Source: an uncultured virus (IMG/VR IMGVR_UViG_3300038825_001787)
Taxonomy: Duplodnaviria > Heunggongvirae > Uroviricota > Caudoviricetes
Direction: 5' to 3' (one strand)
DNA: 20,000 nt
IMG/VR virus record: IMGVR_UViG_3300038825_001787
Below, one piece after another: positions 21 through 20,000 of this stretch. The notes below the pieces were generated by a model that saw only the letters and a list, made by a program, of their open reading frames with translations, ran no database searches and was not told where the DNA came from. Every line of letters starts with the position of its first letter. The stretch's first letter is position 1. The position numbers were made by a program, and so were the translations under genes.

Positions 21-1607
21 ATGCTCGCACGCGACGATTTTAGCACCAAAGAACTAAACAACAGTTTGTTTTTGACTAAAAGAAATGCTTGCGGCAAAAT
101 ACCATATGCCGATGGAACAGAAGCATATGACATCATAGAGTTACTACACTTGGAAAAATTCAAAGACCGAGTCCACTACAATTTACCGGTGGAACGTTTC
201 GATGAATTTATACCCATGTATGAATCTTTTTTCTTAACGAAAACAGAGTCACCATGGGTAAGAACACGACAAAGCCCAGAAATGGGGTATGAAGGCCGTT
301 GCACCATTGGTGCCGGCATTTATTACTGTCGTACCAATTATGAAATACACGAAGATGAAAACTACAATTACATCGTATCAACGTTTGACATATACACAAA
401 TAATTTATTTGACAATGCTGTTGAACTATACAATGGTGTAACACCTGCTTATTATTATAGGGGCACAGAGCCTCGACATATAGAAGCAGATACTGGACTA
501 TCCAGATTTTACGAGTTGTTAAAAACAGCGCCACAGAATACAGGCTCAACAGGCTCAACCCGCCAAGTAGTCAGGCACAACCTAACCAACTTGGAACGGT
601 TGTGGCAATGGAAAAGTGAACATCGCCTACCAGAAGTGAGGCGACATGCTATGGATACAAGTCGAGATAACATATCAGTTACCAGAAATGGACTGACTGC
701 TTGTGTTGCGATTCGTAAGGGGTTCAACCCCGCCCCAGGAGATCCAACGGCAGAAGCCGATAGGTCTTTGGGGGACTACGAGTTGACTAAAAGGTGGTTT
801 GGCAAGTCGACGGCAACTGAAAGGTTGCTATCAATGCGAAAGCGTCCCGTGTATTTAAATGAAACAAGAATAGTAACTACTACTAATTCTTTAACTAAGA
901 AAAAAAGTGACAAAATGTTTCAAGGCATTTTGGCACGGCAGCCCTCTGCTAATGGGATTGCCGACAACCCTTTTGCTTTTGCTCAGATCTTTACTACAAA
1001 CAGTAATGAACAGAGCGGGCAAGAACTACTTCGTTTGTTGAAAAACAGACTAAGTCCAAAGAATTACCCTGAAACCCAAAAAAAGGTCCTGTTGAAAGCC
1101 GGGGCCTTTGTAGGCAACAATCCGCCTGGTACGGATATAATAAGGATAGACCATGTTTTAACAAGCGCCATTTCTCTAGTAAGAAAAGGTGACTGTAATG
1201 AAAGAATTGGTGGACGCAACTTATATGACTTTTGTCGATTGAACGATGCAGAAGGAGTGTTTGAATTAACTCTCCCAAACAATGCAACACTACGACTAGA
1301 CAAGAAAGTGGCTACACTAGACAATGGTATATACAAAGTTTGTGTCACAGAAGACGTGACCGATATTATACAATATCTATCTACAATAAGGACTGCATTC
1401 GGCAGCGTAACTGTCGAAATAAAAAAGGGAAGACTAAACCTAGAAACAGGCTCAGTGAACGAAGTCCGTCGAAAAAGACGCGCTAGAATCATGAGTCCTT
1501 CTACTAACACAACTCCTACTTCGAGAAGAACAAGGTATGGAAGATTTAGACTAGGAAGTGCTTTTGGACTTTTAGGAAAAGAAAATAAAACGGATGAAAA
1601 TGAATAA
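21..1607 (+). CDS. Hypothetical protein, probably 5'-truncated by the window edge
   Basis: 528-aa ORF. The frame is open back to position 3. The stop lies in the junction hairpin at 1588-1614. No family recognised. Confidence 0.75.
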   Translation: MLARDDFSTKELNNSLFLTKRNACGKIPYADGTEAYDIIELLHLEKFKDRVHYNLPVERFDEFIPMYESFFLTKTESPWVRTRQSPEMGYEGRCTIGAGIYYCRTNYEIHEDENYNYIVSTFDIYTNNLFDNAVELYNGVTPAYYYRGTEPRHIEADTGLSRFYELLKTAPQNTGSTGSTRQVVRHNLTNLERLWQWKSEHRLPEVRRHAMDTSRDNISVTRNGLTACVAIRKGFNPAPGDPTAEADRSLGDYELTKRWFGKSTATERLLSMRKRPVYLNETRIVTTTNSLTKKKSDKMFQGILARQPSANGIADNPFAFAQIFTTNSNEQSGQELLRLLKNRLSPKNYPETQKKVLLKAGAFVGNNPPGTDIIRIDHVLTSAISLVRKGDCNERIGGRNLYDFCRLNDAEGVFELTLPNNATLRLDKKVATLDNGIYKVCVTEDVTDIIQYLSTIRTAFGSVTVEIKKGRLNLETGSVNEVRRKRRARIMSPSTNTTPTSRRTRYGRFRLGSAFGLLGKENKTDENE

Positions 1608-1619
1608 TCCGTTTACTAG

Positions 1620-2138
1620 ATGAAATATATTTGTAAAATATGTGATTTGGAATTCACGACAGAGGCAGCAGAAAAACTGCATAACTCTGTTTTTCACAAA
1701 AAGAAAGCCAAAGTAAAGACACCGAAAAAACCACCAAAGAAGGATAAACTCCTGGCAACTGATGCTAGGAAAGGATACCTTTCTCGTGGCGGTGAAAATA
1801 CCAAAGTATTCTTGCCCGATGGAAAGTCTACTAAATATAAAGACTACATCAAAGGAATGCGAGACGGCTTTCCTGACTTCAAAGTCGGCGATAAAATCGC
1901 TGCGAAAGAAGTTAGAAATTTGTTTAAGCACGATATATATAATACAAAAGATATCAAAGGTGCTAAACTGGAAGTTAAAAGAATTGTCAAAAATAAGAAT
2001 GGTATTAGAAGATACTATTTGGAGAACAGCAAAGTGCGATTGACGTGGTCCGAAGGGGTCGCTTTCAAGAGTCATGCTGAAAGAAAAATGCGTGACAAGC
2101 ATATTATACTTCCAATTAATTTGTTTCACAAAAAGTGA
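1620..2138 (+). CDS. Basic protein with N-terminal C2H2-type zinc finger
   Basis: CKIC-x11-H-x4-H at the N-terminus. ATG directly follows ACTAG. Confidence 0.8.
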   Translation: MKYICKICDLEFTTEAAEKLHNSVFHKKKAKVKTPKKPPKKDKLLATDARKGYLSRGGENTKVFLPDGKSTKYKDYIKGMRDGFPDFKVGDKIAAKEVRNLFKHDIYNTKDIKGAKLEVKRIVKNKNGIRRYYLENSKVRLTWSEGVAFKSHAERKMRDKHIILPINLFHKK

Positions 2139-2147
2139 AACTACTAG

Positions 2148-2225
2148 ATGAGTTCGGAAGATAACCCCATGCGGGCCTTCCCATTAAGTAAGAACAATGA
2201 TATCAGGAATTTTGAGTGTGGTTAG
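2148..2225 (+). CDS. Putative 25-aa peptide (MSSEDNPMRAFPLSKNNDIRNFECG)
   Basis: Not in the ORF track. ATG follows hairpin GTTTCAC/GTGAAAC + tACTAG, and the stop lies in the next junction hairpin. Confidence 0.5.
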   Translation: MSSEDNPMRAFPLSKNNDIRNFECG

Positions 2226-2245
2226 AATATAACCACATTCATCAG

Positions 2246-2440
2246 ATGAGTAAAATAGAAGATGACGTATGTCAACAAATACAAGACCGTGCCAAAGTGG
2301 GGCTAAACAAATATGGAACCACTATGGAGCGTACTGACCTTTCTACAATAGACTGGTTGGAACACGCCAAACAAGAAGCAATGGATCTTGTCATATACTT
2401 AGAGCGTATCATACAAGATATGCGTGAGAAGGAAGAATGA
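2246..2440 (+). CDS. Conserved phage-type small helical protein (KYGTT...W..HA.QEAMD motif; possibly all-alpha NTP-pyrophosphatase-like)
   Basis: Motif recalled from phage hypothetical proteins. Start moved to ATG 2246, which follows an 11-bp hairpin + ATCAG. Confidence 0.75.
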   Translation: MSKIEDDVCQQIQDRAKVGLNKYGTTMERTDLSTIDWLEHAKQEAMDLVIYLERIIQDMREKEE

Positions 2441-2455
2441 ATCTTCCATTACTAG

Positions 2456-2737
2456 ATGGAAATCAAAATTAAAATGGAACCCGAAGACATACCAAAAATA
2501 TTGAAGGGGATTGGAAACGTCGAACAACCGGCAGAGTCTGTTGTTGAGAAACGTGCCAAAAGGGCCGACATTGGACAAAACAGAGTCCCCTGGTCGAAAA
2601 GAGAGAAGGCTTGGCTGAAAAAGCAGGCAAGACCAACCATTGATAACGGTCATCATCGGCAAGAATTGAAAGAAATGTTTGGCAATATCCGAACAGCGAA
2701 GTCAATAGATGCTTGTTGGAGAAGACTTACCAATTGA
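2456..2737 (+). CDS. Putative Myb/SANT-like HTH DNA-binding protein
   Basis: PWSKREKAWL...FGNIRTAKSIDACWRRL resembles a Myb repeat. Motif-linked start. Confidence 0.7.
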   Translation: MEIKIKMEPEDIPKILKGIGNVEQPAESVVEKRAKRADIGQNRVPWSKREKAWLKKQARPTIDNGHHRQELKEMFGNIRTAKSIDACWRRLTN

Positions 2738-2790
2738 TTGAGCATAACATAGTAAGATTAATTACTAACTATGTTTCCTCAATTTACTAG

Positions 2791-2991
2791 ATGACACTGA
2801 TGCCAAAGCAAAGTGAGAACCTGGGACTAGAAATCTCAGAGCCTATATACAGGCTGGCAACAAGCATATACGAAAAGCACAATTCCAAGGTCTTAGCAGG
2901 CAGTGGAAAATGGATGCCCACAAACGTAGCGGTTGACTTGGCAAAAAAAATGCTAAGTGAAACGAATGCTAGTCGGTCTAATACTAGATGA
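2791..2991 (+). CDS. Hypothetical protein
   Basis: 66-aa ORF with motif-linked ATG. Its stop overlaps the next ATG (ATGA). Confidence 0.6.
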   Translation: MTLMPKQSENLGLEISEPIYRLATSIYEKHNSKVLAGSGKWMPTNVAVDLAKKMLSETNASRSNTR

Positions 2992-4220
2992 GTAATATAA
3001 ACGAAAATCAAGGATACGCAGTTGAAGGAAGATTGAAAGAAACAGCCAAAGGGTATTTAGCCCTCTGGTCAATTAATGCAGGTAGGATGAGATATTCCGA
3101 CCTTGTTACTGTTGCTAAGCGCAATGGTTTAACACAGGGTCAGATACCGAAACTACGAACCGCAAAGAATGCTTTTGCAGTTGCAAAGGATACTATACTT
3201 AACTCCGCATTACCAACACTCTTAGAATTAGATGGTTGGGATGGAGCGGTCAAACAAAGTTTAGATGTTAAACATCTAAAAAGAGGAAATGAATACCAAG
3301 TCTCGGTTAGACGAGAAGGTAGAATGCATGGGAAGTTGCACAAGGAAAGTTCTCCAGTCTTTAGACTGGAATTCTCTCCTCCAGATGCCTTTGACCATGT
3401 TGCATGGGTACAAAACTACATGCGCTCTTTTTGGGATGCTGAATACATCAAAGAAATTGAAGCAGGTACTAAACAAAGACCTGTACCTAGTCAAACTAGG
3501 GTTTGTATACGTATAGAAGGCTATTGGGATGACAGCGATATTGACGTCGAGTTGATGTTGAGAGTCAGAGACCGAATAAGCCAAGCATTTGAAGATACTA
3601 TTGTTAGTATTGACGAAACGCTTTTGCGACAACACATTAAAGAGACATTGAAATCTTTAAACGGTATTAGTTTCCTTGCAGGCAAGGGGGCTACATATAT
3701 TCCCATTACAGACGAGGACAGAGATTCAAAATCTGCGTCTTTGGAGTCTATGGCTAATATTATCACCTCTTTTTCTAGAGGATACCAAACAACCGCAAAC
3801 GATGAAAACTACTATGACGAGAATGGCAAACCCATCAATCGTTATGGAACATCAAGTAATTTTAGATATCTAGGATACCTAGATAGCGAAAGAGAGATGC
3901 AGTACATAAGAGAAGATTTGGGTTCCAGTATTTCGAGAGAAATAGCGGAGTTCCAAGCAGAAGTCGTTAAGACTGCTGCCTCTTTTGATACAACTAAAGT
4001 CGAACTTTTCGAGAAGCAACTTACCAAATTGCAGAGAAAGAAAACTAATATTACTAAAAGAATCGGCAATATGCGCACAACATTGGGCGGAGAGATTCCT
4101 ATTCGTAGGAGACTCCATTCTGATGTTCAGCAAAGATTTGGTAGCCGAATCTCAAACATAACTCAGACCCACAATGCAGTTAGTACTACATTGATGAAGT
4201 TAACTGAGTTTGACAATTGA
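2988..4220 (+). CDS. Hypothetical protein, resembles DUF6744-like family, with C-terminal coiled coil
   Basis: 410-aa ORF. Patterns GYLALWS...GL...IP...AF and GISF..G.GATYIP were recalled from that family and not verified by search. Confidence 0.75.
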   Translation: MSNINENQGYAVEGRLKETAKGYLALWSINAGRMRYSDLVTVAKRNGLTQGQIPKLRTAKNAFAVAKDTILNSALPTLLELDGWDGAVKQSLDVKHLKRGNEYQVSVRREGRMHGKLHKESSPVFRLEFSPPDAFDHVAWVQNYMRSFWDAEYIKEIEAGTKQRPVPSQTRVCIRIEGYWDDSDIDVELMLRVRDRISQAFEDTIVSIDETLLRQHIKETLKSLNGISFLAGKGATYIPITDEDRDSKSASLESMANIITSFSRGYQTTANDENYYDENGKPINRYGTSSNFRYLGYLDSEREMQYIREDLGSSISREIAEFQAEVVKTAASFDTTKVELFEKQLTKLQRKKTNITKRIGNMRTTLGGEIPIRRRLHSDVQQRFGSRISNITQTHNAVSTTLMKLTEFDN

Positions 4221-4238
4221 GGCTAATGCCTCTTACTA

Positions 4239-4954
4239 GAAAGTAAATACAACTGATGCCCTTCGGGGCAAATGACGTATCGCCGAAAATTCCGGTAGAG
4301 CACGCTCTACAGGAACGGCTCATCCTCCGGAACTGCTTCAGGCTGCTGCGCAGACTACTGCGTATCTGAAGCCTTTACCCTAACATCCCTATCACCTTGC
4401 GGCTCCGCTGCGGTGAAACGGAATGTAAACGGGCACGCCTAAACTACAGTTTCCTCGAGCGAGTAAACTGGTTTAACGGCTAATCCTACGGAATAACAAT
4501 CAGGATTTAGTCCTGATAGTATGAGCCTATTTACCGCCTCTACCCTCATTGGGGTAACCCAATTAACCTTCTAAAGAAGGGAGGGCGAGAGGCTTCGGCT
4601 CCTCGGAACTACTACGGCACGAACCAAGATTGAGTTAATCAGTCAAGAGAAATATAAGTACCCGCGTACTGACATTTCACATGACTTACTCAATTTTCAT
4701 GACTTACCCTATGTAGAAACATAGATTTGAACAACTTGAGGCGGCTCTGCGCTGCCCTAAAGGGACATCAAATCTCTGCGTCTACCCCTAGTAAGTCACG
4801 AAAGTTCATACCTTGAGCCACGGTGGAATCCAGAAACAAGTCTTCTGGATTCTGCCCTGCAACTGTATGCTCTGCGGAACCCCGCATACAACGTTGCGGC
4901 TTGGCTCAACCGGTTCATCGCCAAGTTCCTCGGAAAATAGTTTTACTTTCACTA
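4239..4954 (+). ncRNA. Candidate large structured RNA, about 715 nt, family unassigned
   Basis: Bounded by ACTAG sites. No credible ORF. Dense hairpins, including TGCCC-TTCG-GGGCA at 4257-4270. Ends pair: GAAAGTAAA 4239-4247 with TTTACTTTC 4942-4950. Confidence 0.65.
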
Positions 4955-4983
4955 GAGCCTCGAAAGAGGAAGAGTTGATTGAC

Positions 4984-5376
4984 ATGATTGAAGAAAGAAA
5001 CAACATAGTTGACCAAGCAATTACTGATGTAGCACCCGCTACACCAATTGCTGAGCAACCCAAGAAAACAAAAATGGCGCCCATAACGAATGAAATATTT
5101 ATTCGTATGTGGAACCAATCTGAATATGTCAATGATGCAGCAGAGGCGATGGGTATGAACCCCGCTTCTGCAAGAGCAAGGGCCGCAAAACTGAGGGCTA
5201 TATTTGCGAAAGCAGGTGTAGAAATACAGTTGAAGAAACACCCTAAAGCACCAAGAAAGCAAAAGAAGTCGTTGGTCAATGACCTAGACGAACTTGAAAG
5301 ACTTGCTGCGATTGCTAAAGCATCATTACCATCAGAGCCAGCAACACAAAGTGCACCATCAGAGCAATCTGAATGA
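4984..5376 (+). CDS. Putative HTH-like nucleic-acid-binding protein, 130 aa
   Basis: Start moved to ATG 4984, which lies downstream of ACTAG 4951 and a purine-rich leader. FIRMWNQSEYVNDAAEAMGMNPASARARAAKLR is HTH-like and is followed by a basic patch. Confidence 0.7.
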   Translation: MIEERNNIVDQAITDVAPATPIAEQPKKTKMAPITNEIFIRMWNQSEYVNDAAEAMGMNPASARARAAKLRAIFAKAGVEIQLKKHPKAPRKQKKSLVNDLDELERLAAIAKASLPSEPATQSAPSEQSE

Positions 5377-5394
5377 AACACTTGTGTTCTACTA

Positions 5395-5949
5395 GAGAGA
5401 ACTAAAACACCGATGCCGAACAAGCATGTGACGTAAATTAGTAAATTAGAGATTACACATAGCAAGGAAGTCAAACTGATTTTCTGCTAAATCTAAATCT
5501 GCATGGTGATCCAAGCAAGTAATCACGAATGGAATAAATCCACTCGCTGATTTGTATAGGGCAGTTGCCCTACTCAAATCTTACCTGCCCAGGGTCACCA
5601 GCACAATTAGAATAAAGAATTCACATTCGTGAATTAAACTACCACCACATTAGAACGGTAGTCTGCCTTAGAATTAATTTTTTAACATCCGCAACTGGAA
5701 ACGTTCCGCGTGTCTTCACATTCACCTTTACAAAGTAAAGGCCGCACAATACTGTGCCACCAACAGTGAGGTAAAATCCTCACAACATTGGTTGAATGTT
5801 CCAAACACAGCGTCCGAGTTCCAATGCGGAACACCAAAAATCAATAAAAGTTAAACACTAAAACTAGGCAGCATTAAACTGCCAAAGTAAAGCGGCTTAT
5901 ATAAGCCCAATAGTAAAACTTGAAACACTAAAAACTAGAACTCTCACTA
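5395..5949 (+). ncRNA. Candidate large structured RNA, about 555 nt, family unassigned
   Basis: Bounded by ACTAG sites. No + strand ORF of 60 aa or more. Many hairpins joined by A-rich linkers. Ends pair: GAGAG 5395-5399 with CTCTC 5941-5945. Confidence 0.6.
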
Positions 5950-6025
5950 GATAGACCACCATATTTTATATTCATCACCATGAAAAAATAATGGTTTATA
6001 TGACAATCGGGAAAGACCGGTACCA
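5950..6025 (+). ncRNA. Possible 76-nt small RNA ending in hairpin-ACCA (not a cloverleaf tRNA)
   Basis: Lies between ACTAG 5946 and ACCAG 6022. Long interrupted hairpin (TAGACCA/TGGTTTA) plus ATCGG-gaaaga-CCGGT. Confidence 0.3.
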
Positions 6026-6026
6026 G

Positions 6027-6098
6027 ATGAACAAAACTAAACCACTACAACAACTCAATGCTGATTTCCTAAAAAAAGATTGGACGTATGAAAAATGA
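6027..6098 (+). CDS. Putative 23-aa peptide (MNKTKPLQQLNADFLKKDWTYEK)
   Basis: ATG directly follows hairpin + ACCAG variant. Confidence 0.35.
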   Translation: MNKTKPLQQLNADFLKKDWTYEK

Positions 6099-6110
6099 CG
6101 CTTTTAATTT

Positions 6111-6281
6111 ATGGACGCATGGATTAAAAATGAAAGTATACTTGTTGGAAAAGGCGACAGGGGTAAAACCCGGCTCTGTGGTCACAAGTTTTGCGTCGGA
6201 CACCATGAAAGAATGGAACACTATGCTGTGGGCCCGAGCGGTGACAGTCATATTGTTAAAAGGGGTGAGATTCCCCACTAG
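6111..6281 (+). CDS. Putative 56-aa Cys/His-containing protein (alternative frame: ORF 6088-6285)
   Basis: MDAWIKNESILVGKGDRGKTRLCGHKFCVGHHERMEH... ends on the TAG of the ACTAG site. The coding frame is ambiguous. Confidence 0.3.
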   Translation: MDAWIKNESILVGKGDRGKTRLCGHKFCVGHHERMEHYAVGPSGDSHIVKRGEIPH

Positions 6282-7514
6282 ATGAATATCAAATGGAAGA
6301 CAGAAGAGACGCGTTGTATCCATAAAGACCCACGGGACTTTAGCAGATGCAAAATTAAAGACGTTAAACCTGGAGAATACTTATGTGAACACCATAAGTA
6401 CGATCTCGCATCATTTGTAAATGACCCAACAGCCTGTATTGATATTATGGCTGAAAGGTTTCCAAAAAGACATCATCCTGCCTGTGACCGCAAAGGAGAA
6501 AATGACTGCGAATGTCATGACTACTCTAGAGGCGCAAGTATGATGATTACCATGAAGGCTGCTTTCAAAGAAAGCAAACTTCAGAGTAAACTATACCAAA
6601 AACACTTGAAAGTAACGATGGCTGATAAAGTCCGTCGAATCAAGAACTATTATAGGAATATAACAGAGGATGATATATATCTACCTCCCTATAGTAATTT
6701 TAGACAGTATAGATTTTTCACATGGGAACCAAAGAGTCAGAGAATCGTTGTCAAAGTATTGAAAGATAATGTAAGGACAAAGAAAATTCTGCTCAGTCAT
6801 CTACGAAGACTGGCACCTATACACGTGTATTACACAACAGGTCAATGGCTAAATCCGCAAGGAATTGGTCCTGACCCTGAATCACGTAAAGGTTTAGCCA
6901 AGATGCGAAAGAAAGGTTGGTGCGCTAAAAAAAGTAAGAAAGTTACTTTGAAGCGATACCATAACACCATGTTGAAACGAGATTTATATTTCGATATAGA
7001 TTACGACAACAAAGACTATCATCAAGGAATAAGGATGGCCGACGAACTAATACATGCAATAAATAAACACATTCATTGTTATCAGTTCAACGGCGTAAAA
7101 CAACAAATCGTATTTAGTGGAGGCAAAGGCTTCCACTTGATAATAAACGGATACTATGACGAAGCGTTTACTAGACCTAGTAAGCGTAAATTGTACGACC
7201 TATTGAGAAGAGAGGCTATAAAAAAAGGCGAAGATAAAAACGCCGCTTTCTTACGCTACTCTGTCAACCACGAAAACAAAAATGCAGCGATTGAAAACCA
7301 CTACAAAGACATAGTGGATATTCTGCAATACGAAACAGACCTTTTGTTAGATTGGATGGTTACATATGATAACCGTAGAATAATACGATTGCCTGGAAGC
7401 GTGCATGGAAAGTCCATGCGTGTTTGTAAGGAAATTAATTTTAGTGACGATAATGTTATTAAAAACCGTGCTGGAAAACCCGTTGGGTATGTTCCAGCAG
7501 ACCCCATTCCTTGA
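6282..7514 (+). CDS. priS: Archaeo-eukaryotic primase catalytic subunit (PriS-like) with Cys/His-rich N-terminal extension
   Basis: AEP motifs DLYFDIDYD, VFSGGKGFHL and DWMVTYDNRRIIRLPGSVHGKS, plus APIHVYYT resembling PriS P.HVYYS. Confidence 0.88.
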   Translation: MNIKWKTEETRCIHKDPRDFSRCKIKDVKPGEYLCEHHKYDLASFVNDPTACIDIMAERFPKRHHPACDRKGENDCECHDYSRGASMMITMKAAFKESKLQSKLYQKHLKVTMADKVRRIKNYYRNITEDDIYLPPYSNFRQYRFFTWEPKSQRIVVKVLKDNVRTKKILLSHLRRLAPIHVYYTTGQWLNPQGIGPDPESRKGLAKMRKKGWCAKKSKKVTLKRYHNTMLKRDLYFDIDYDNKDYHQGIRMADELIHAINKHIHCYQFNGVKQQIVFSGGKGFHLIINGYYDEAFTRPSKRKLYDLLRREAIKKGEDKNAAFLRYSVNHENKNAAIENHYKDIVDILQYETDLLLDWMVTYDNRRIIRLPGSVHGKSMRVCKEINFSDDNVIKNRAGKPVGYVPADPIP

Positions 7515-7523
7515 GGTTACTAG

Positions 7524-8060: not shown

Positions 8061-8070
8061 TTCCTACTAG

Positions 8071-8862: not shown

Positions 8863-8880
8863 AACATTTGTTTCTACTAG

Positions 8881-10699: not shown

Positions 10700-10717
10700 G
10701 CAATACTGCCTTACTAG

Positions 10718-11837: not shown

Positions 11838-11847
11838 ATCTTACTAG

Positions 11848-12066: not shown

Positions 12067-12230
12067 CCACTTACTAGATGAAGAAAATATACGGAGACAC
12101 TTACCTTAGTGTTGAAGAAGAATTCGCCGCTATAAACAAATTAGCAGAAATAAATGCTAAAGAGTTTTTAGTTGAAATAATACACTTATTTCCAAACAGT
12201 GGAAACTAAAATAACCACTTACTAGATGAA
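12049..12230 (+). repeat. 34-bp exact direct repeat (12049-12082 and 12197-12230) flanking a small ORF
   Basis: CAGTGGAAACTAAAATAACCACTTACTAGATGAA occurs twice. Confidence 0.95.
12078..12209 (+). CDS. 43-aa hypothetical protein
   Basis: Not in the ORF track. MKKIYGDTYLSVEEEFAAINKLAEINAKEFLVEIIHLFPNSGN, with motif-linked start and the stop in the next hairpin. Confidence 0.6.
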   Translation: MKKIYGDTYLSVEEEFAAINKLAEINAKEFLVEIIHLFPNSGN

Positions 12231-12729: not shown

Positions 12730-12740
12730 TGCGTTACTAG

Positions 12741-13589
12741 ATGTATAATGAAGATAACATTAAAGAAAAGAGATTACAAATAACGACTTTGACCGAAGAA
12801 GAACACGAGAAACTCAGAAACTTAACACTTTCTGAAGTAAAGGTTACTCCGGTCTGCATGGGTGCAAAAGTTGGTTGTCACTTGGCCGAATGGCCTAGTG
12901 GTAGAACCGGCAAAGCGCACTTCTGTAACGGTGATGGATTAGATGTTAATTACTATGTATTACTTAGTGACAACTCTAACGATGAACTAATTCGTGCTCA
13001 CGCAGTGGGTAAATGTAATCATACACACTTGGATATTGCCAGAAGAAATATTGATGGCAAAAACAAAAGACAAAGAAAAAAGGACATGAAAGCCGCATTC
13101 AAAGATTTGAGGGAACTCATTCTTTTAGTCGGCAGCAACTTAGAACAATTCTATACCGCTTGGCGTATTTCACTACGACCAAGTGATAAAGAGTTCTTTG
13201 AACTGTTTATGGACTACAAGCGAGACATGGCGCTGGCAGAATGTTTGGTGATGCTTAATTCGGAAGAATACCGCAACACTGTACCACGATTACCAGAAGA
13301 AAGTGACTTTGCTTGGGACAAGAGATTTAGACAACAGGCTGTATTGCACTTAGATGCTATACAAGAACTAGCAACAGGAAGTTATGCTGAATTCCAAATG
13401 GATGAAGAAGACTATGCTAATCTAACTGCTGCTATTAGAGTCTCTATGGTTCAACTAAAAAATCAACGTTCTTTGAACAATTGTTTTTTGAAGTTTAATA
13501 GCGAATCTGCACTTGCTCTTTTCATTGAGCGAGCAGGATACGGACACTTAATGTCTGATGATATTAAACAAAGATGGTTAGGAGAATAA
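12741..13589 (+). CDS. Hypothetical protein
   Basis: 282-aa ORF with a Cys/His-rich N-terminal half. Motif-linked start. Confidence 0.8.
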   Translation: MYNEDNIKEKRLQITTLTEEEHEKLRNLTLSEVKVTPVCMGAKVGCHLAEWPSGRTGKAHFCNGDGLDVNYYVLLSDNSNDELIRAHAVGKCNHTHLDIARRNIDGKNKRQRKKDMKAAFKDLRELILLVGSNLEQFYTAWRISLRPSDKEFFELFMDYKRDMALAECLVMLNSEEYRNTVPRLPEESDFAWDKRFRQQAVLHLDAIQELATGSYAEFQMDEEDYANLTAAIRVSMVQLKNQRSLNNCFLKFNSESALALFIERAGYGHLMSDDIKQRWLGE

Positions 13590-13605
13590 GCCTGACTATT
13601 ACTAG

Positions 13606-13956
13606 ATGACTACAAAAAAATGTAAAGAATGTGAAAAAGAATTCACACTGACACAACCTGCCCAAAAATACTGCTCGGATGAATGCCGAGGTATTAGCAG
13701 GAAGACTTACATGAAAGAAATGATGGCTCTGAGAAGAGAGATTTTGTTTTTTGAAATGATGAATAGTACCGCGAAGGATGTACCAATACCAGACGACCAA
13801 GAATTAATGGTTGCTTGGTATAAAACACCTGGGTTACTAGAATTTATCAGGAATTGTATAAAGGAAGGCCAACGAGTAGTTGGCATCCAAATAACCAGGA
13901 ACGAAACAGGAATTGTTGTCGTACCCGATGGTTTAATTAACGCCTCAGAAGACTGA
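13606..13956 (+). CDS. Protein with N-terminal CxxC...YCSxxC (TRASH/treble-clef-like) zinc finger
   Basis: KKCKECEKEF...QKYCSDECR. Confidence 0.78.
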   Translation: MTTKKCKECEKEFTLTQPAQKYCSDECRGISRKTYMKEMMALRREILFFEMMNSTAKDVPIPDDQELMVAWYKTPGLLEFIRNCIKEGQRVVGIQITRNETGIVVVPDGLINASED

Positions 13957-13966
13957 GGTTTACTAG

Positions 13967-14137
13967 ATGCGTAAAATAGATACTAAAGCATATCAACCAC
14001 ATACTTTTGGTGGCGCAGCACGATTCGTGCTTGACGCCCCTGAAATATTGGCAGCCCTCGATGAAGGGTACGAAGAAATTCGGCAATTAAAGGCCGAGAA
14101 TACGAGACTCAAATCTCAACTACCTACTAATGAGTAG
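13967..14137 (+). CDS. 56-aa protein related to 15969-16244
   Basis: Not in the ORF track. MRKIDTKAYQPHTFGGAARFVLDAPEILAALDEGYEEIRQLK... with motif-linked start. Confidence 0.7.
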   Translation: MRKIDTKAYQPHTFGGAARFVLDAPEILAALDEGYEEIRQLKAENTRLKSQLPTNE

Positions 14138-14145
14138 GCTACTAG

Positions 14146-14478
14146 ATGAATGAATCAACGGAAGTAAAAACAGAAAAAGAACTAGTTGCCGAACTTGACG
14201 AATACACCGCAACAATGCGGCAAATTCGCAAGTTAGATGCTAGCAGGATGAAAATAAAACAATCTTTTCATGCTAGTTTAGTACCTGGACAGGAAATGGT
14301 TGGTCACTATCAGATAAAATCTGATAACATAGAAACAACCAGAATGAAGTCCGTAGAAGCATGCCGAGCAGAATTAATTGGACTTGGATATGATGAAAAA
14401 GAAATCATGAAAATAATGTCCAAATTAATTAACTACGGTGTAAGCAGACAGTTCTTAGTTAAATACGACCCCCAATGA
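14146..14478 (+). CDS. Hypothetical protein
   Basis: 110-aa ORF with motif-linked start. Confidence 0.75.
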   Translation: MNESTEVKTEKELVAELDEYTATMRQIRKLDASRMKIKQSFHASLVPGQEMVGHYQIKSDNIETTRMKSVEACRAELIGLGYDEKEIMKIMSKLINYGVSRQFLVKYDPQ

Positions 14479-14508
14479 GTTAAAAAGAAAACTCAAATGG
14501 GCTACTAG

Positions 14509-14808
14509 ATGGAAGAAAAAGACTGGCAACCGAGCATATCGGATATAGAATGGACACGACGTACAATAGATACTTTGGTGGAAGAAGGAGCATGGGGTAT
14601 ACCCTCTGCAAATGTCTTACTAAAAGTATCAAAGATAAACAAAAGATACGGAATAAGTCCAATAAAAGACAGATCACTTAATCAAAATGAGACAGCCCTC
14701 CTAATTCGCACAGTTAAAACAATGAAAAAACTGGATTACGAAATAGGTGCTGTCGAAGGTGGAATAGCATTCCACTCTGGAATCAGTGTCATCTTTAAGG
14801 TGGCTTGA
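14509..14808 (+). CDS. Hypothetical protein
   Basis: 99-aa ORF with motif-linked start. Confidence 0.75.
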   Translation: MEEKDWQPSISDIEWTRRTIDTLVEEGAWGIPSANVLLKVSKINKRYGISPIKDRSLNQNETALLIRTVKTMKKLDYEIGAVEGGIAFHSGISVIFKVA

Positions 14809-14818
14809 TTCTTACTAG

Positions 14819-15040: not shown

Positions 15041-15062
15041 CACTGGGCTGACGCCTTACTAG

Positions 15063-15413
15063 ATGAGAAAACGTGGAACGTTAAATGAAAGAGACCCCTT
15101 TACAACCGAAGTTGAAATCAACGAGCCCGATAGGATTCGTTGGCCAATTAGGTGTAGAGCGGTTATCGACACGGGTGCGACAAGAACTTCTATTGATGAA
15201 GGATTGGCTCGCACACTGAATCTCAAACCCGCTGGTCGGGTTAGAGTAAGAAATGCAATGGGAGTACAAAAAAGGAAACTAGTTTGGCTACAAATAGATG
15301 TCTTTAATGAAACAATTATACTAAAGGCTTCTATTACTAATAGATCTAAACTATCCTGTCCTATACTTATAGGAAGAGATATACTACATAATGCATATGA
15401 GGAGGAAGAATGA
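15063..15413 (+). CDS. Retropepsin-like (clan AA) aspartic protease
   Basis: AVIDTGATRTSID catalytic motif and C-terminal ILIGRDIL. Confidence 0.85.
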   Translation: MRKRGTLNERDPFTTEVEINEPDRIRWPIRCRAVIDTGATRTSIDEGLARTLNLKPAGRVRVRNAMGVQKRKLVWLQIDVFNETIILKASITNRSKLSCPILIGRDILHNAYEEEE

Positions 15414-15538
15414 TGAAAGAAATTGACCCCGAAGAAGGACACCCACAAGACCTCATCGTGTTGAAGCGATGTGAATTGGTTGCAGGTTACACATATTTGG
15501 TGGAAGAAGTCATCCCACATAAAGTGGAAGAAGAATAA
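15410..15538 (+). CDS. 42-aa hypothetical protein, translationally coupled
   Basis: Not in the ORF track. ATGA overlap with the protease stop and SD-like GAGGAGG upstream. No ACTAG site at its start. Confidence 0.5.
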   Translation: MMKEIDPEEGHPQDLIVLKRCELVAGYTYLVEEVIPHKVEEE

Positions 15539-15976
15539 CCCTCTACTAGATGAATGATGAAGAATTATTCGAGAAAATAAATAACAAGGAAGTAACTAAT
15601 GAATCAATAACCATACCAATAATCGGCCAAGGTCGAGAATTGGTGATATGGGCAATTGAGAGCAAAGAGGAATTACCCGAACACTTGTCACATAGTGATG
15701 CTTGTGGTTGGGTGGTCGTTGAACGACAGGATGATGGTGGTGAATTTATTCACATCATTTTTTACAAACGCGACGACAACCCAGTTTACGAAGCAGGGGT
15801 AATCGCTCATGAGTGCTTACACGTGCTCAGACTACTTCACGAAAACACCGGTCAGAACTTCAATTTGAAGAAGGGAGATGACGAGTTCTCAGCCTACATA
15901 TTACAGTGGCTAGTAGAACAATGTTACCTAAAACTGACAAACCATGAGGAAGAATAACCCTCTACTAGATGAATGA
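15530..15976 (+). repeat. 28-bp exact direct repeat (15530-15557 and 15949-15976) flanking the HExxH gene
   Basis: GAAGAATAACCCTCTACTAGATGAATGA occurs twice. Confidence 0.93.
15550..15957 (+). CDS. HExxH (zincin-like) phage protein
   Basis: VIAHECLHV followed by DDEFSAYILQWL. Confidence 0.75.
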   Translation: MNDEELFEKINNKEVTNESITIPIIGQGRELVIWAIESKEELPEHLSHSDACGWVVVERQDDGGEFIHIIFYKRDDNPVYEAGVIAHECLHVLRLLHENTGQNFNLKKGDDEFSAYILQWLVEQCYLKLTNHEEE

Positions 15977-16244: not shown

Positions 16245-16270
16245 CCTTCATGGGCTAACGCCCTACTAGA

Positions 16271-16603
16271 ATGAGTAATGAAAATGAAAACAATACTAAT
16301 GAAAAATACGAGAAATACGAAATGCTAGAATACCTAGCCGAAAGTGTTCCGCACGATGCGGGGGACTACCAAGCAGAGGCTAAAGCACTTCTTGACTTGA
16401 TGGGAACTACCTACACTGCTATGGGATTTCCCATAATCTTGAGAGAAATGGTCAACCAAAACATAAAGGAAAACTACAAACCTCGTATCAAGTCCTTTTT
16501 CGGAGGAAACTCCACAAGTGCCGATGAAAAGATAAAGGCTGCTGGAAAGAAGTTCCAAGCGGCCTTTGAGGATGCTCTTGTGGGACATATGAAAGAGGAG
16601 TGA
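16271..16603 (+). CDS. Hypothetical protein
   Basis: 110-aa ORF with ACTAGA-ATG start. Confidence 0.75.
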   Translation: MSNENENNTNEKYEKYEMLEYLAESVPHDAGDYQAEAKALLDLMGTTYTAMGFPIILREMVNQNIKENYKPRIKSFFGGNSTSADEKIKAAGKKFQAAFEDALVGHMKEE

Positions 16604-16610
16604 ACAACTC

Positions 16611-17189
16611 CTACTAGAATGGAAATCAAAATAGACATTAGTGTAAAACAAATACTAACTCTATGCGGTATACAACAAGAGATTGACAAAAAGGAAGTCG
16701 CTAGACTTCGTAAAAATGCCAATAACCGAAGATACCGTGAAAGAAACAGAGAAATAATCAATGCTAGAAAAAAACTGTATCGCGAAAAGAATCGTGAGAA
16801 GATAAAAGCAAGAAGACGCGAGATTCACAAAGCGAATCCTGAGAAGAAGTCGATGTCTGACCGCAAGTATTACGAAAAGAATCGTGAAAAGATAATTGCA
16901 AAAAGACGTGAGTGGGATGAAGCAAATCCTGAGAAAAGAAATGCGTATGACCGCAAGTATTACGAAAAGAATCGTGAAAAGATATTAGCGAGAAAACGCG
17001 CACGCTATCACGCAGACAAAGAGGACTAATCCTCTACTAGAATGGAAATCAAAATAGACATTAGTGTAAAACAAATACTAACTCTATGCGGTATACAACA
17101 AGAGATTGACAAAAAGGAAGTCGCTAGACTTCGTAAAAATGCCAATAACCGAAGATACCGTGAAAGAAACAGAGAAATAATCAATGCTA
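16611..17189 (+). repeat. 156-bp exact direct repeat (16611-16766 and 17034-17189)
   Basis: Identical from CTACTAGAATGGAAATC to ...ATCAATGCTA. Confidence 0.95.
16619..17029 (+). CDS. Basic helical repeat protein (YREKNREKI-type repeats)
   Basis: 15/30-aa periodic repeats, with a 37-bp exact internal repeat at 16858-16894 and 16948-16984. Confidence 0.8.
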   Translation: MEIKIDISVKQILTLCGIQQEIDKKEVARLRKNANNRRYRERNREIINARKKLYREKNREKIKARRREIHKANPEKKSMSDRKYYEKNREKIIAKRREWDEANPEKRNAYDRKYYEKNREKILARKRARYHADKED

Positions 17190-17404
17190 AACAACGCCTA
17201 TATCGCAATAAAAATTTAGAACGATTGAAGGTTAAGCAAGAGGAATGGCGTAAAGCCAACCCTGAAAAACGCGCGGCACAAGCCCGACGATACCGTGAGA
17301 AACACCGCGAGAAGTTGGCTAGAAAACAGCGTGAATATATGAAAAGAAAGAAGGAGCAATCCTCTACTAGATGGAAGAAAAAATTGAATGCTCAATTTGT
17401 TTGA
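17042..17404 (+). CDS. Paralogous basic repeat protein; apparent stop-loss at 17357-17359
   Basis: First about 49 codons are identical to the 16619 gene. It reads through the junction and overlaps the next gene by 34 nt. Confidence 0.72.
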   Translation: MEIKIDISVKQILTLCGIQQEIDKKEVARLRKNANNRRYRERNREIINAKQRLYRNKNLERLKVKQEEWRKANPEKRAAQARRYREKHREKLARKQREYMKRKKEQSSTRWKKKLNAQFV

Positions 17405-17667
17405 AAACAATAGAACCACACCCAAAAGACACCAGACAAGCAAAATGGAAAGAAGCCAACTATCATGGTTGGATCTATGGGAATAACCCCGATCCTGTTG
17501 CCACTGGTCGCTGTTGCGACACATGTGACTGTCTGATTGTTCTCCCAGCAAGAATGGGTATGAACGGTGCGGCGGCTATTGAGTTTGGACAGATAATGCT
17601 CCGAAACCGGATTAACCCTCCGGATTTTGAAAAAATTAAAGAAAACCTTAAGAAACAGGCTGAATAA
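17371..17667 (+). CDS. Phage-type zinc-binding protein (CxxC...GNNP.P...GRCCDxC)
   Basis: CSIC and YGNNPDPVATGRCCDTC...VLPAR. Motif-linked start. Confidence 0.8.
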   Translation: MEEKIECSICLKTIEPHPKDTRQAKWKEANYHGWIYGNNPDPVATGRCCDTCDCLIVLPARMGMNGAAAIEFGQIMLRNRINPPDFEKIKENLKKQAE

Positions 17668-17678
17668 GCCTCTACTAG

Positions 17679-17795
17679 ATGAGTGATTTACACGATGAAA
17701 TAATTGCATGGCGTTCCCATTTAAGGAACGAAAATGCTACTAGTCACGTCTCTGATGAACATATGCCATATATTGGCGAGTTTATTGGAGAGTGA
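17679..17795 (+). CDS. 38-aa hypothetical protein
   Basis: Not in the ORF track. MSDLHDEIIAWRSHLRNENATSHVSDEHMPYIGEFIGE, with motif-linked start and the stop in the next hairpin. Confidence 0.55.
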   Translation: MSDLHDEIIAWRSHLRNENATSHVSDEHMPYIGEFIGE

Positions 17796-17805
17796 ACTTA
17801 CTAGA

Positions 17806-18921
17806 ATGAGTAAAGAATTTGAAACAAAAATAATATACAAGAAAACCAGCACAGGCAAAATCCAGCAATGGCAAGCCTGGGTTGAAAAGACTGAAACTGG
17901 ATATCTGTTAAAAGTTAGATCGGGTCAAACCGATGGTAAACTTACAGAAACAACAGGACAGGTTATTGATGAAGGTAAGCAAAAGCGTACCGCAAAGGAG
18001 CAAGCAGTTTTTGAGGCTAACTCAAAAGTTAACAAGAAACTAGATGAAGGATATTCTGACAGCATTGAAAGTGCTAAGAATTACGTCAAGTTGCTACCGA
18101 TGCTGGCACATTCTTTTGCTAAGCGAAAGCACAACATCAACTATCCTGCAATTGTTCAGAGAAAATTTGACGGTGTACGATGTCTAGCCATCCTAAAGGA
18201 TGACGGCACTGTATCACTAATGTCAAGAAAAGGAAAAGAATTTCCTCACATGAATCATATCAGAAAAGATATTGCTGCCAATAACAGTGATACTACTTTG
18301 ATACTTGATGGTGAATTATATTCTGATACCTTGTCTTTCCAAGTACTGGTTGGACTTGTAAAACGTGTTACACTGAAAGAAGGAAATGATGAGCAAATGC
18401 TCCAAGTTTCCCTACGTGTATACGATTGTATAAAATTAAACGAAGAACCTGGGTTTCAACAAAGACACGAGATGATTGCCAAAGTAACAGATGGCGCAAA
18501 TTATCTTTCTTTAGTTGAAAACTTTACAGTGGAATCTGAAAAGGAAATCCACGAAGCACAGGCTCGATTCGTAGAAGAAGGCTATGAAGGTGCTATGGTT
18601 AGAAACATAACCGGAGCATATGCCATCGGAAAAAGAAGTGCTAATTTACAGAAAGTGAAAACTTTCTTAGACGGCGAATACGAAATCGTCGGCTTTAACC
18701 AAGCCTCAGGAAATGACATTGGAACGGTTATCTGGGTGTGTAAAACACCGGAAGGAAACCAGTTCAACGTCAGACCTCGTGGTACGAGAGAAGTAAAAAG
18801 AGAACAATACGAAAACGGTGATTCTTACATTGGGCGACATTTGACTGTCCGATATCAAGAATTAACCGATGACGGTGTTCCAAGATTCCCAGTGGGAATA
18901 GCAATTCGTGATTACGAATAA
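17806..18921 (+). CDS. lig: ATP-dependent DNA ligase
   Basis: Motif I QRKFDGVR, motif III ILDGELY, motif IV GYEGAMVR, motif V LQKVK and C-terminal VPRFP. Start moved to 17806 (ACTAGA-ATG). Confidence 0.93.
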   Translation: MSKEFETKIIYKKTSTGKIQQWQAWVEKTETGYLLKVRSGQTDGKLTETTGQVIDEGKQKRTAKEQAVFEANSKVNKKLDEGYSDSIESAKNYVKLLPMLAHSFAKRKHNINYPAIVQRKFDGVRCLAILKDDGTVSLMSRKGKEFPHMNHIRKDIAANNSDTTLILDGELYSDTLSFQVLVGLVKRVTLKEGNDEQMLQVSLRVYDCIKLNEEPGFQQRHEMIAKVTDGANYLSLVENFTVESEKEIHEAQARFVEEGYEGAMVRNITGAYAIGKRSANLQKVKTFLDGEYEIVGFNQASGNDIGTVIWVCKTPEGNQFNVRPRGTREVKREQYENGDSYIGRHLTVRYQELTDDGVPRFPVGIAIRDYE

Positions 18922-18948
18922 TTGCCTTAACAGGCTTACTAGATAAAA

Positions 18949-19707
18949 ATGGGATATGACCTAGAAATTATAACAAACAAAACCAAAAGAAAATATCATA
19001 TGTGGTTCAGCGTATGGGAATGGTACCGATTGTTGGTAGTTACATTACATGGATTGGGTGCTTTGACTTCGGAAGAAGTAGAAAGAAAACTAATGACTGT
19101 TAATGAACTACAAGCCGGGACACTCCCTAATGATGAAGAAACCAAAGGAAGAATCGACCTTTCTTATGAAAAAAATGATGATGACAGAACAACACAAAAT
19201 AAGATATTATCCATGGACCTTGACACAGATGTACAAGGTCGGATAATTGGAATTGGTGTTGGCGTACCAATGCATTTTGTAGAAAATGCTGACGAGTCAG
19301 AAATAGAAAGACTTCACAATAACCTTGAGTCATTGTGTAGGATACAAATGATGACCAACCACATGTTATTTGATACACAAGATATGACAGGCTTTGGAAA
19401 CAAAACCTGTCGAGGTCTTGCGTGTAATGACGGTTTTAAACTATCAAGTGATACAGTTGCCGCACTAGGGTGTGGTATGTTTATTGCTGCTTCCAAAGGA
19501 GGCATAATTGATGAAAAGTTAACCGAATTTTTACAAAACACAGAATTCACTGAAACATTTCAAAATGTTCTAAAGGAACTAAAGGAAATGGATTCTGGTG
19601 ATTTTGAGATAGAAGAATTATGGGAAAACCACAAAGAGGAAATTCCTAAGTGGTTTGCTATAATGATCAAAGCAACCTCTTTGGGTGCCAAAATTGAAAT
19701 CACTTAG
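18949..19707 (+). CDS. Hypothetical protein
   Basis: 252-aa ORF. ATG lies 6 nt after ACTAG. Confidence 0.8.
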   Translation: MGYDLEIITNKTKRKYHMWFSVWEWYRLLVVTLHGLGALTSEEVERKLMTVNELQAGTLPNDEETKGRIDLSYEKNDDDRTTQNKILSMDLDTDVQGRIIGIGVGVPMHFVENADESEIERLHNNLESLCRIQMMTNHMLFDTQDMTGFGNKTCRGLACNDGFKLSSDTVAALGCGMFIAASKGGIIDEKLTEFLQNTEFTETFQNVLKELKEMDSGDFEIEELWENHKEEIPKWFAIMIKATSLGAKIEIT

Positions 19708-19724
19708 TCGCGAGGCTATACTAG

Positions 19725-20000
19725 ATGAACCCTGAATGGAAGAAACGTCAAGAAGAATTGATAAAACACTGGAATGAGCGTGCAAATGAATTGGTTGGTA
19801 AGACAATCAAATCGTGTCGCTACATGACAGACGAAGAAAAAACAAAACTAGGACTGGAACACTGGGGTCGAATTAATGTAATAATTACTTTCGACGATGG
19901 CACTATTGCATTTCCGTCGCAAGATGATGAAATGAATGGTTCAGGTGTACTATATGCTTACAGAGCAGATGGTTCTGAAATTGCAATGCCTCACATATAA
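19725..20000 (+). CDS. Conserved phage-type hypothetical protein
   Basis: LVGKTI...RYMT.EE...FDDGT...PSQDDE.NG.G pattern. Motif-linked start, stop at the window end. Confidence 0.78.
   Translation: MNPEWKKRQEELIKHWNERANELVGKTIKSCRYMTDEEKTKLGLEHWGRINVIITFDDGTIAFPSQDDEMNGSGVLYAYRADGSEIAMPHI

Follow-up and report, generated by a model that had tools for sequence, protein, structure and literature searches.

Hairpin-TAG marks between the units of a gene array in an uncultured marine virus of archaeal type

In phage T7, RNase III cuts the early polycistronic RNA at structured intercistronic signals, and the upstream product retains a 3' hairpin. These sites are long irregular duplexes (~20 bp or more) that are cut inside the stem, and the genes keep Shine-Dalgarno (SD) leaders. 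Whole tRNAs punctuate the long transcripts of mitochondria, and the 3' end of histone pre-mRNA forms at a stem-loop through cleavage a few nucleotides later by the beta-CASP nuclease CPSF73, of which aCPSF1/FttA is the archaeal homologue. For the archaeal tailed virus HF2, the published account describes nine class I/II intergenic repeats of 29-58 bp with conserved sequence, which are proven promoters with a transcription factor B recognition element (BRE) and TATA box (PMC8707807). The haloarchaeal virus HGTV-1 (NC_021328), which we inspected directly, carries CTTAAGTAGATA upstream of most of the 41 + strand genes examined, at a distance of ~25 nt from the ATG. Here we analysed a 20,000-nt stretch of an uncultured virus (IMG/VR record IMGVR_UViG_3300038825_001787; the window), in which a short hairpin followed by ACTAG, here called the mark, recurs at unit boundaries. 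Our tentative reading, to which we give slightly less than an even chance, is that the mark is an RNA-level boundary at which long transcripts would be separated into units that end in a hairpin and mRNAs that are nearly leaderless, with cassette exchange as a secondary role.

The mark in the window and in related contigs

The pentamer ACTAG occurred 73 times on the two strands of the window, compared with 34.8±6.5 times in 200 dinucleotide shuffles (maximum 53). It was found 57 times on the + strand and 16 times on the - strand; the corresponding numbers were 37 and 5 for TACTAG and 29 and 0 for ACTAGATG, and TACTAGATG and TACTAGAATG were counted 26 and 4 times. The marks are far beyond chance and the observation is real. 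All credible genes of the window lie on the + strand in a one-strand array, and the coding strand is purine-rich.

The marks at unit boundaries number 39 and comprise 34 of the 37 + strand TACTAG, CACTAG at 4951, 5946 and 6277, and AACTAG at 5863 and 5934. An original prediction, made by a model from the letters of the window, had arrived at the same number of junction sites; the ATG directly or one A after the mark was present at the positions that it gave, and its four named hairpins (1588-1614, 12708-12734, 13573-13600 and 17020-17035) were found where it had placed them. The other TACTAG, at 7170, 13836 and 17739, lie within genes, the last of them being a possible 40th mark. Two intragenic copies of ACTAGATG, at 14887 and 18039, look like chance occurrences. 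In a sequence logo of 66 sites the signal read YYTACTAG and then ATG, with T at -1 in 62 of the 66.

Two relatives of the window were found in IMG/VR, namely a 21.5-kb contig (ligase 97% and primase 89% identity; synteny at 75-97% nucleotide identity) and a 143.6-kb contig (L003/L130; ligase 75% identity). Wider searches of IMG/VR with a junction 14-mer, a GGCC-hairpin pattern and single proteins returned only these two contigs or chance matches, and no ligase relatives were found in the genome collection. A metagenome scan with a ligase alignment gave 80 related loci (70-98% identity), which were therefore chosen through one gene. Their genes were called as naive open reading frames (ORFs) of at least 50 codons from the first ATG, and ORFs on the - strand served as background only. 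The window sequence was also present in 20 public runs from nine studies; 14 were DNA runs with a share of words of at least 0.99, and six were RNA-library runs that held parts of it.

The 80 loci contained 1107 ORFs on the + strand and 496 on the - strand. TAG stood no more than 7 nt before the ATG in 807 and 41 of these, respectively, and was accompanied by an adjacent hairpin in 535 and 15. The trinucleotide at -3 to -1 of the + strand ORFs was TAG in 736 and CAG in 39 of the 1107, so that the final AG is the most constant part. The CAG-ATG junctions (ACCAG, CACAG, GACAG) were seen upstream of the ligase in L190, L206, L234 and L239. Two flavours were apparent, YWACTAG-ATG (458 sites) and YTTAG-ATG (334 sites), with zero spacing between TAG and ATG in 415 and 308 of them, and the version in L003 was helix-N-TAG, 0-3 nt before the ATG. 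Taken together, the two flavours and the L003 pattern define an invariant core, YAG-AUG after a helix, to which the extra TAC is a lineage-specific addition. The scan of relatives proposed with the original prediction found the mark kept in 80 related marine contigs; it was absent from L005-L009 and from the 735-kb phage LR756501, whose ligases are more distantly related.

TACTAG followed by ATG is also the BioBrick assembly scar ahead of coding parts. A synthetic origin of this type was rejected in view of the presence of the mark in 80 environmental contigs and in runs of nine studies, its TTAG variant and its covarying natural hairpins.

Hairpins, start sites and units between marks

We folded the 32 nt upstream of the 32 gene-opening ACTAG. 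Their mean minimum free energy (MFE) was -6.13 kcal/mol, compared with -3.41 at 1000 random positions (Mann-Whitney p = 7e-8) and -2.45 for shuffles of the same segments (p = 9e-13), whereas the other 25 + strand ACTAG had a mean of -2.94. The excess stability that the original prediction expected over shuffled controls was therefore obtained, and 34 sites of a related contig behaved similarly (-6.52 versus -3.49 and -2.57 in the comparison sets). By a strict rule (MFE of -3 or lower, helix end within 3 nt of ACTAG), 28 of the 39 marks have an adjacent hairpin; at 7519, 12221, 4951 and 5391 the helix appeared only in an alternative fold or as a long-range pairing.

The stems measure 4-12 bp and the loops 3 to 14 nt. 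Hairpin sequences vary between sites, the only common part being YYTACTAG, and at orthologous junctions the helix is kept through compensatory changes. After the ligase, for instance, the relatives have the stems GGC/GCC, GCC/GGC, GTCC/GGAC, GCCC/GGGC and GCCT/AGGC, and the loop at this place, where the stop precedes the hairpin, is GAAA, GAGA or GUAA in most variants. Structure, not sequence, is under selection at the marks.

At the TAG-ATG junctions of the relatives, loops of 3, 4, 5, 6, 7 and 8 nt were represented by 53, 116, 107, 38, 32 and 17 cases. Among the 116 distinct 4-nt loops, 30 were GNRA and none belonged to the reverse-complement class TYNC, for which base composition alone would predict a GNRA:TYNC ratio of ~2.5:1. 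This indicates selection for the hairpin in the + sense transcript, in which it acts as RNA, and bears out the earlier remark on GNRA loops on the + strand.

Neither a TATA/BRE block nor an SD site was detected at the marks; from -60 to -6, the information content in the logo of 66 sites stayed at or below 0.25 bit throughout, in agreement with the original prediction. Canonical A/T boxes do occur elsewhere in the clade; at the viral TFB gene of L183, which ends in a T run and carries no mark, the box TATTATATA stands 24 nt upstream of the ATG. In the window, three TATA-like boxes are clustered at 5897-6002, in non-coding DNA just ahead of the array, which begins at 6282, and TATA-like 7-mers elsewhere are equal by strand (13 clusters on +, 12 on -). 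The T run of an intrinsic terminator follows the hairpin at one of the 39 marks only (11807-11838). This hairpin with its seven T is strong, is kept in the related contigB (L004), is the only terminator-like site of the array and lies 5 nt before the mark.

Directly after stem and TAG, ATG was found 385 times on the + strand and 17 times on the - strand, whereas GTG (24 versus 34) and TTG (21 versus 39) showed no excess. That only ATG is in excess fits a 5'-terminal AUG. The replication genes on the opposite strand of L003 (MCM, Erf and a second primase) have GGAGG-like sites and no marks (0/9), which indicates that the host reads SD sites and that the array is a separate expression class.

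A competing explanation regards the mark as a non-canonical promoter or initiator of compact form, at which a viral TFB or other viral factor would direct transcription to start on the A or G of TAG, the bases at -1 and +1 being a pyrimidine and a purine, respectively. The hairpin would be the terminator or 3' stabiliser of the previous unit, and each gene would be its own leaderless unit. The base right after the mark is indeed a purine at 65 of the 66 gene sites, and the hairpin and T run before mark 11843 resemble a true terminator that needs a restart. Moreover, a complete TFB homologue (TFIIB repeats PF00382, E = 4e-45; zinc ribbon, E = 2e-15) is encoded by L183 (12557-13480, 307 aa), L182 (18285-19202), L240 (19792-20673) and L222 (15457-16350); in close relatives the gene lies ~6 kb beyond the ligase. 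Because close relatives encode their own TFB, a non-canonical promoter remains a rival. A term look-up in the accessible text of a paper on archaeal Caudoviricetes gave no mention of viral TFB genes (PMC8651126). Precedents are provided by HGTV-1, in which a promoter-like box precedes nearly every small gene and the ATG follows ~25 nt later (PMC3950731), and by HF2, in which class I repeats initiate transcription at a G in the conserved gamma motif, the central 12 bp of which contain TAGAG (PMC8707807).

We nevertheless consider such a promoter unlikely. The marks have no TATA/BRE-like block at a fixed distance, canonical promoters of the same clade are obvious A/T boxes, the space that TBP would bind is occupied by G+C-rich stems of free sequence, and the GNRA loops show selection of the hairpin as RNA. 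The original prediction had offered an N4-type hairpin promoter as one form of this explanation. N4-type promoters have a fixed geometry with a short stem and a 3-nt loop. The marks, with loops of 3 to 14 nt, lack a fixed geometry and no viral RNA polymerase was seen, which makes the N4 comparison weak. PF00940 (viral RNA polymerase) had no match in the 21-kb related contig, control genomes being equally silent, and a review states that archaeal viruses encode no RNA polymerase (PMC5569661).

Two of the units between marks are structured and non-coding. The first, nc1 (4240-4950), folds far better than its shuffles (z = -13.5). Its 5' and 3' ends pair, and the closing helix, which covaries, followed by C-ACTAG is the next mark in all three homologues (the window, contigB at 4842-5502 and L245 at 13096-13692). 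In the consensus of these three sequences only, 28 of 113 pairs were changed on both sides. The family is ~600-710 nt long; its hairpins vary, the single-stranded blocks between them are invariant and its terminal helix covaries. Searches of 83 related loci by nhmmer and BLAST found no homologues beyond contigB and L245; exact-pattern scans returned contigB only from IMG/VR and no match to the nc1 module from the genome collection. The second unit, nc2 (5396-5862), has z = -8.9 and is 87% identical in contigB. Rfam gave no match at the gathering score in the whole window and only three chance-level matches (E of at least 1.4) in 4200-6300.

Both units start with the same module, YNGAUGCC-loop-GCAWRUGACGUA (4253-4279 and 5410-5435), in which only the loop varies among the three nc1 homologues. 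By our reading of the consensus, the module may form a K-turn, an L7Ae binding site. A segment of nc1, CUAGUAAG (4788-4795), is complementary to the junction core, but it is missing in contigB and the idea of guide pairing was therefore dropped.

There is no tRNA in the window, and four tRNA calls in three distinct contexts were obtained in the 83 related loci. In L003 and L238, a tRNA-Arg is preceded by GGCC-GAGA-GGCC-C-TAG 4 nt before its 5' end and followed by another mark; these two cases are orthologous and count as one. As marks bracket nc1, open nc2 and flank a tRNA, they are not a translation signal only.

This bears on a further explanation, translational coupling on an uncut polycistronic mRNA, in which the terminating ribosome would melt the hairpin and re-initiate at the AUG 6-28 nt downstream, and the refolded hairpin with the adjacent UAG would prevent sliding or starts elsewhere. 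There are 33 marks preceded by an ORF of 40 codons or more, and at 30 of them the stop of that ORF does lie 6-28 nt upstream of ACTAG, in or beside the hairpin, much as the original prediction had it. Of the other three, two (2786 and 6277) end on the mark's own TAG and one has its stop 44 nt away. The lack of SD sites, AUG as the sole start codon in excess and RNA-library contigs that span marks would also suit coupling. However, non-coding RNAs and a tRNA, which are untranslated, are flanked by marks as well, the TAG is seldom in the upstream frame (it is the stop at 2/33 junctions) and the stop-to-start distance is variable. Coupling therefore appears quite improbable to us.

The mark might instead serve primarily for the recombination of gene cassettes at the DNA level, in the manner of integron attC or of shuffling mediated by promoter early stem-loop (PeSL) elements, its position before the ATG being a by-product. 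Integron attC sites are 57-141 bp long, have RYYYAAC/GTTRRRY cores and extrahelical bases, fold as DNA and need IntI. When the window was compared with 10 close relatives, 57 of 109 similarity ends, which are not independent events, fell within 15 nt of a mark, compared with 6.6% for random positions. In strain variants from the sequencing runs, the skipped segments extend exactly from one mark to another (2145>2244, 5935>6276, 15955>17358), and relatives whose ligases are 93-98% identical carry different genes downstream of the ligase, their sequences diverging right after ACTAGAT. Within the window, some junctions are present twice over their whole length, the last and first codons included (12050-12077 equals 12198-12225, and 15526-15552 resembles 15945-15971), a sign of junction-to-junction recombination or gene conversion. 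On the other hand, the marks are gene boundaries, and any model would predict breakpoints there. The window showed neither an integrase nor a complete recombinase, the gene at 9830-10699 containing only a fragment of a recombinase-type DNA-binding domain; the GNRA bias shows selection on the transcript, and a crossover site would not need the zero spacing of the YAG-AUG core. We regard a primarily recombinational role as very unlikely. An HUH or Helitron site, also raised by the original prediction, found no support, since no HUH protein was detected in the window with Pfam and PHROGs and the loops are of RNA type.

A possible boundary in long transcripts

Each unit of the array, be it a gene, a structured non-coding RNA or the tRNA of a relative, ends in a short hairpin of free sequence that forms in the + sense transcript. 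YAG (TACTAG here) comes 0-5 nt later, and the next unit starts at once, genes with AUG. We hypothesize that the mark acts as a boundary in RNA. The array would be transcribed as long RNAs from few canonical promoters, for which the boxes at 5897-6002 are candidates. A putative endonuclease, host or viral, would recognise 'helix + YAG' and cut at or just after it. The upstream product would retain a protective 3' hairpin, and the downstream product would begin 0-3 nt before the AUG and be translated as a leaderless mRNA. The conserved core of 8-10 nt may double, as microhomology, for cassette exchange between strains. We infer the cleavage, the enzyme, the long precursor and leaderless translation from the comparisons described above.

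Several findings weigh against this boundary hypothesis. Seven of the 39 marks (2786, 2983, 5863, 5934, 5946, 11843 and 15545) have no usable hairpin, and the distance from helix to TAG in the lineage of the window varies from 2 to 5 nt; both are awkward for an enzyme that measures from the helix. No candidate nuclease was seen among the window proteins (RNase H, primase, ligase and an aspartyl-protease-like protein were all that Pfam and PHROGs returned), and four large orphan proteins had no relative among solved structures. The earlier claim that G.T pairs single out the + strand failed, as symmetric scoring gave 19 G.T and 18 A.C and the fold energies of the + strand and its reverse complement did not differ (Wilcoxon p = 0.87); the strand call consequently rests on the tetraloops. 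Transcription may stop at the terminator-like hairpin before mark 11843 and must then restart, and the TFB homologue of close relatives could serve non-canonical promoters. Finally, many contigs from the four RNA-library runs compared extend over marks (2481-2907, 7253-7824 and a 3.6-kb stretch from 609 to 4279 are examples), so that uncut RNA or carried-over DNA exists.

At their loose ends, the RNA-library contigs showed no piled-up ends, poly(A) or added leader, and contigs cannot show RNA ends. They neither support nor refute processing. Relatives 90-99% alike were seen in two oligo-dT-primed marine RNA libraries (X16 and X17), which could reflect A-rich internal priming, DNA carry-over or tailed RNA.

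Punctuation of a transcript into RNAs with a 3' hairpin and near-leaderless mRNAs, as the original prediction had proposed, fits all of the computed evidence (no promoter or SD, excess of AUG only, marks before non-coding RNAs and a tRNA, and GNRA loops on the + strand only), and the interpretation is supported in part. It is conceivable, although we think it doubtful, that the marks belong to a dedicated RNA punctuation system in marine archaeal viruses, with an RNase or ribonucleoprotein that reads any helix followed by YAG and is perhaps built around the ~700-nt structured RNA with its K-turn-like module. If true, this archaeal and viral equivalent of mitochondrial tRNA punctuation would employ a new enzyme and a new signal and would release leaderless mRNAs, a tRNA and large structured RNAs, the ~700-nt RNA itself by way of two marks. 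It would also explain how dozens of genes without SD sites are expressed from few promoters.

Viruses of marine archaea are abundant, and the mark is found on about two thirds of the genes in the accessory arrays. It would give a handle on archaeal mRNA processing and leaderless translation, and it offers an explanation for the shuffling of gene cassettes. In practice, it is an annotation rule for gene starts, small ORFs and non-coding RNAs in such genomes. If an enzyme reads 'helix + YAG', it would represent a new RNA-processing activity and a possible tool.

The virus, its array and comparison with known systems

By Pfam and PHROGs, the window encodes an archaeo-eukaryotic primase-like protein, an RNase H, an ATP-dependent ligase and an aspartyl-protease-like protein, together with many orphans. 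In a tblastn search of 50,697 phage and virus records, MCM of L003 matched 16, all of them archaeal viruses; with the TFB and the archaeo-eukaryotic primase, this led us to take the host as an archaeon. The evidence points to an uncultured marine virus of archaeal type. No structural genes were seen, and the status as a tailed virus is not supported by the genes seen here. Mostly small accessory genes and replication genes make up the long same-strand array to which the window belongs (Table 1).

Many of the array proteins are rich in CxxC pairs. The 172-aa protein has C-x2-C-x12-H-x4-H at its start (window 1620-1700), by eye a classical C2H2 zinc finger. The genes at 16619-17029 and 17042-17404 are tandem paralogues with identical first 49 residues and diverged tails, of which contigB has further repeats, and the product of gene 2456 has a similar start, MEIKIK.

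Table 1. Marks and other features of the window in order of position
Feature	Position	Strand	Downstream unit and remarks
Mark	1588-1619	+	Hairpin 1588-1614 + ACTAG; ATG 1620 (gene 1620-2138, 172 aa, C2H2-like N-terminus)
Mark	2123-2147	+	Hairpin + TACTAG; ATG 2148 (25-codon mini-ORF)
Mark	2431-2455	+	ATG 2456 (gene 2456-2737)
TACTAG, no adjacent hairpin	2785-2790	+	ATG 2791 (gene 2791-2991); TAG is stop of upstream ORF
TACTAG, weak hairpin only	2982-2987	+	ATG 2988 (gene 2988-4220, 410 aa)
Mark opening nc1	4219-4239	+	
nc1, 711-nt structured non-coding RNA unit	4240-4950	+	UUCG/GNRA loops on +
Mark	4940-4955	+	3' strand of nc1 closing helix + C + ACTAG; 28-nt leader, ATG 4984 (gene 4984-5376)
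Mark opening nc2	5375-5395	+	Short hairpin + TACTAG
nc2, 467-nt structured non-coding unit	5396-5862	+	
AACTAG, no hairpin	5863-5867	+	Opens 66-nt unit 5868-5933 with two small hairpins
ACTAG pair 12 nt apart (5934, 5946), no hairpin	5934-5950	+	Open unit 5951-6276
Three TATA-like boxes (5897, 5964, 5995)	5897-6002	+	Non-coding DNA; candidate canonical promoter region for downstream array
Mark, CACTAG	6262-6281	+	ATG 6282 (archaeo-eukaryotic primase-like, 6282-7514)
Mark	7500-7523	+	ATG 7524 (RNase H, 7524-8060)
Mark	8051-8070	+	ATG 8071 (gene 8071-8862)
Mark	8861-8880	+	ATG 8881 (gene 8881-9048)
Mark	9054-9094	+	11-nt leader containing GGAG, then ATG 9106 (gene 9106-9540)
Mark	9539-9560	+	ATG 9561
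Mark	9808-9829	+	ATG 9830; stem covaries with contigB (GAGGC/GCCTC versus AAGGC/GCCTT)
Mark	10698-10717	+	ATG 10718
Terminator-like hairpin 11807-11830 + 7 T, then TACTAG	11807-11847	+	ATG 11848
Mark	12050-12077	+	ATG 12078
Mark, hairpin sequence same as 12050-12071	12198-12225	+	ATG 12226
Mark, GAGA loop	12708-12740	+	ATG 12741
Mark	13573-13605	+	ATG 13606; compensatory changes versus contigB
Mark	13942-13966	+	ATG 13967; two compensatory changes versus contigB
Mark	14123-14145	+	ATG 14146
Mark	14471-14508	+	ATG 14509
Mark	14779-14818	+	ATG 14819
Mark	15045-15062	+	ATG 15063 (aspartyl-protease-like, 15063-15413)
TACTAG, weak hairpin only	15544-15549	+	ATG 15550
Mark	15946-15968	+	ATG 15969
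Mark + A	16252-16269	+	ATG 16271
Mark + A	16596-16617	+	ATG 16619
Mark + A	17020-17040	+	ATG 17042
Mark	17349-17370	+	ATG 17371; upstream ORF 17042-17404 reads across
Mark	17657-17678	+	ATG 17679 (38-codon ORF)
Possible 40th mark	17712-17743	+	Hairpin + TACTAG, then 56-nt unit, no direct ATG
Mark + A	17778-17804	+	ATG 17806 (ATP-dependent DNA ligase, 17806-18921)
Mark after ligase	18924-18942	+	6-nt leader, ATG 18949; orthologous hairpins of relatives covary, GAAA/GAGA loops
Mark	19705-19724	+	ATG 19725

No description of a hairpin-TAG mark was found in full-text literature searches, which did not cover supplements. With the same scope, term look-ups in the accessible text gave no mention of promoter, hairpin or leaderless in the magrovirus paper (PMC5434244), no match in the Poseidoniales virus paper (PMC11706807) and no mention of promoter in the archaeal Caudoviricetes paper (PMC8651126).

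Some processing and recombination signals share features with the mark. Like T7 and mitochondrial transcripts, the transcripts of the array are proposed to be cut into single-gene RNAs at structured signals; unlike these, the mark is a hairpin of 4-12 bp with YAG and a terminal AUG, and the window has no tRNA between its genes. The histone 3' end, an analogy only, also has a short hairpin of conserved shape and, after ~5 nt, a cut at a pyrimidine-A step, but histone stem-loops are conserved in sequence and the stems of the marks are free. Integron attC resembles the mark as a hairpin of variable sequence and conserved shape at the 3' end of a promoterless cassette, with a short core before the next ORF. 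It differs in that the core of the mark is TACTAG or TTAG, the stems are short and the loops are of RNA type, and no integron integrase or tyrosine recombinase was found among the 26 proteins of the 20-kb window.

Closer in their setting are three viral systems. The PeSL cassettes of T4-type phages, as reported (PMC4122927), likewise have a small stem-loop motif between small variable genes on the same strand, and indels and replacements between close relatives occur at the motif, as do similarity ends at the marks. However, PeSL carry a recognisable early promoter and a terminator, whereas the marks have no promoter block, conserve only YAG or TACTAG abutting the ATG, belong to a virus of archaeal type and bracket non-coding RNAs and a tRNA. 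HGTV-1 shares with the array a large genome of archaeal tailed-virus type (143.9 kb, compared with the 143.6-kb contig of the relative) and long same-strand arrays of small genes with a conserved signal in a gap of ~25-35 nt and an ATG without SD (PMC3950731). Its signal, however, is a TATA-like box of conserved sequence, CTTAAGTAGATA, with inverted repeats in one arm only, in contrast to free-sequence hairpins without an A/T box and with TAG directly at the ATG. The HF2 repeats are also repeated intergenic signals of an archaeal tailed virus (PMC8707807), but the marks number ~40 per 20 kb, vary in sequence and have no TATA. All three nearest systems are promoter-bearing sequence repeats, and the mark lacks this defining feature; compared with them, it looks like an undescribed way of marking the end of one RNA unit and the leaderless start of the next.

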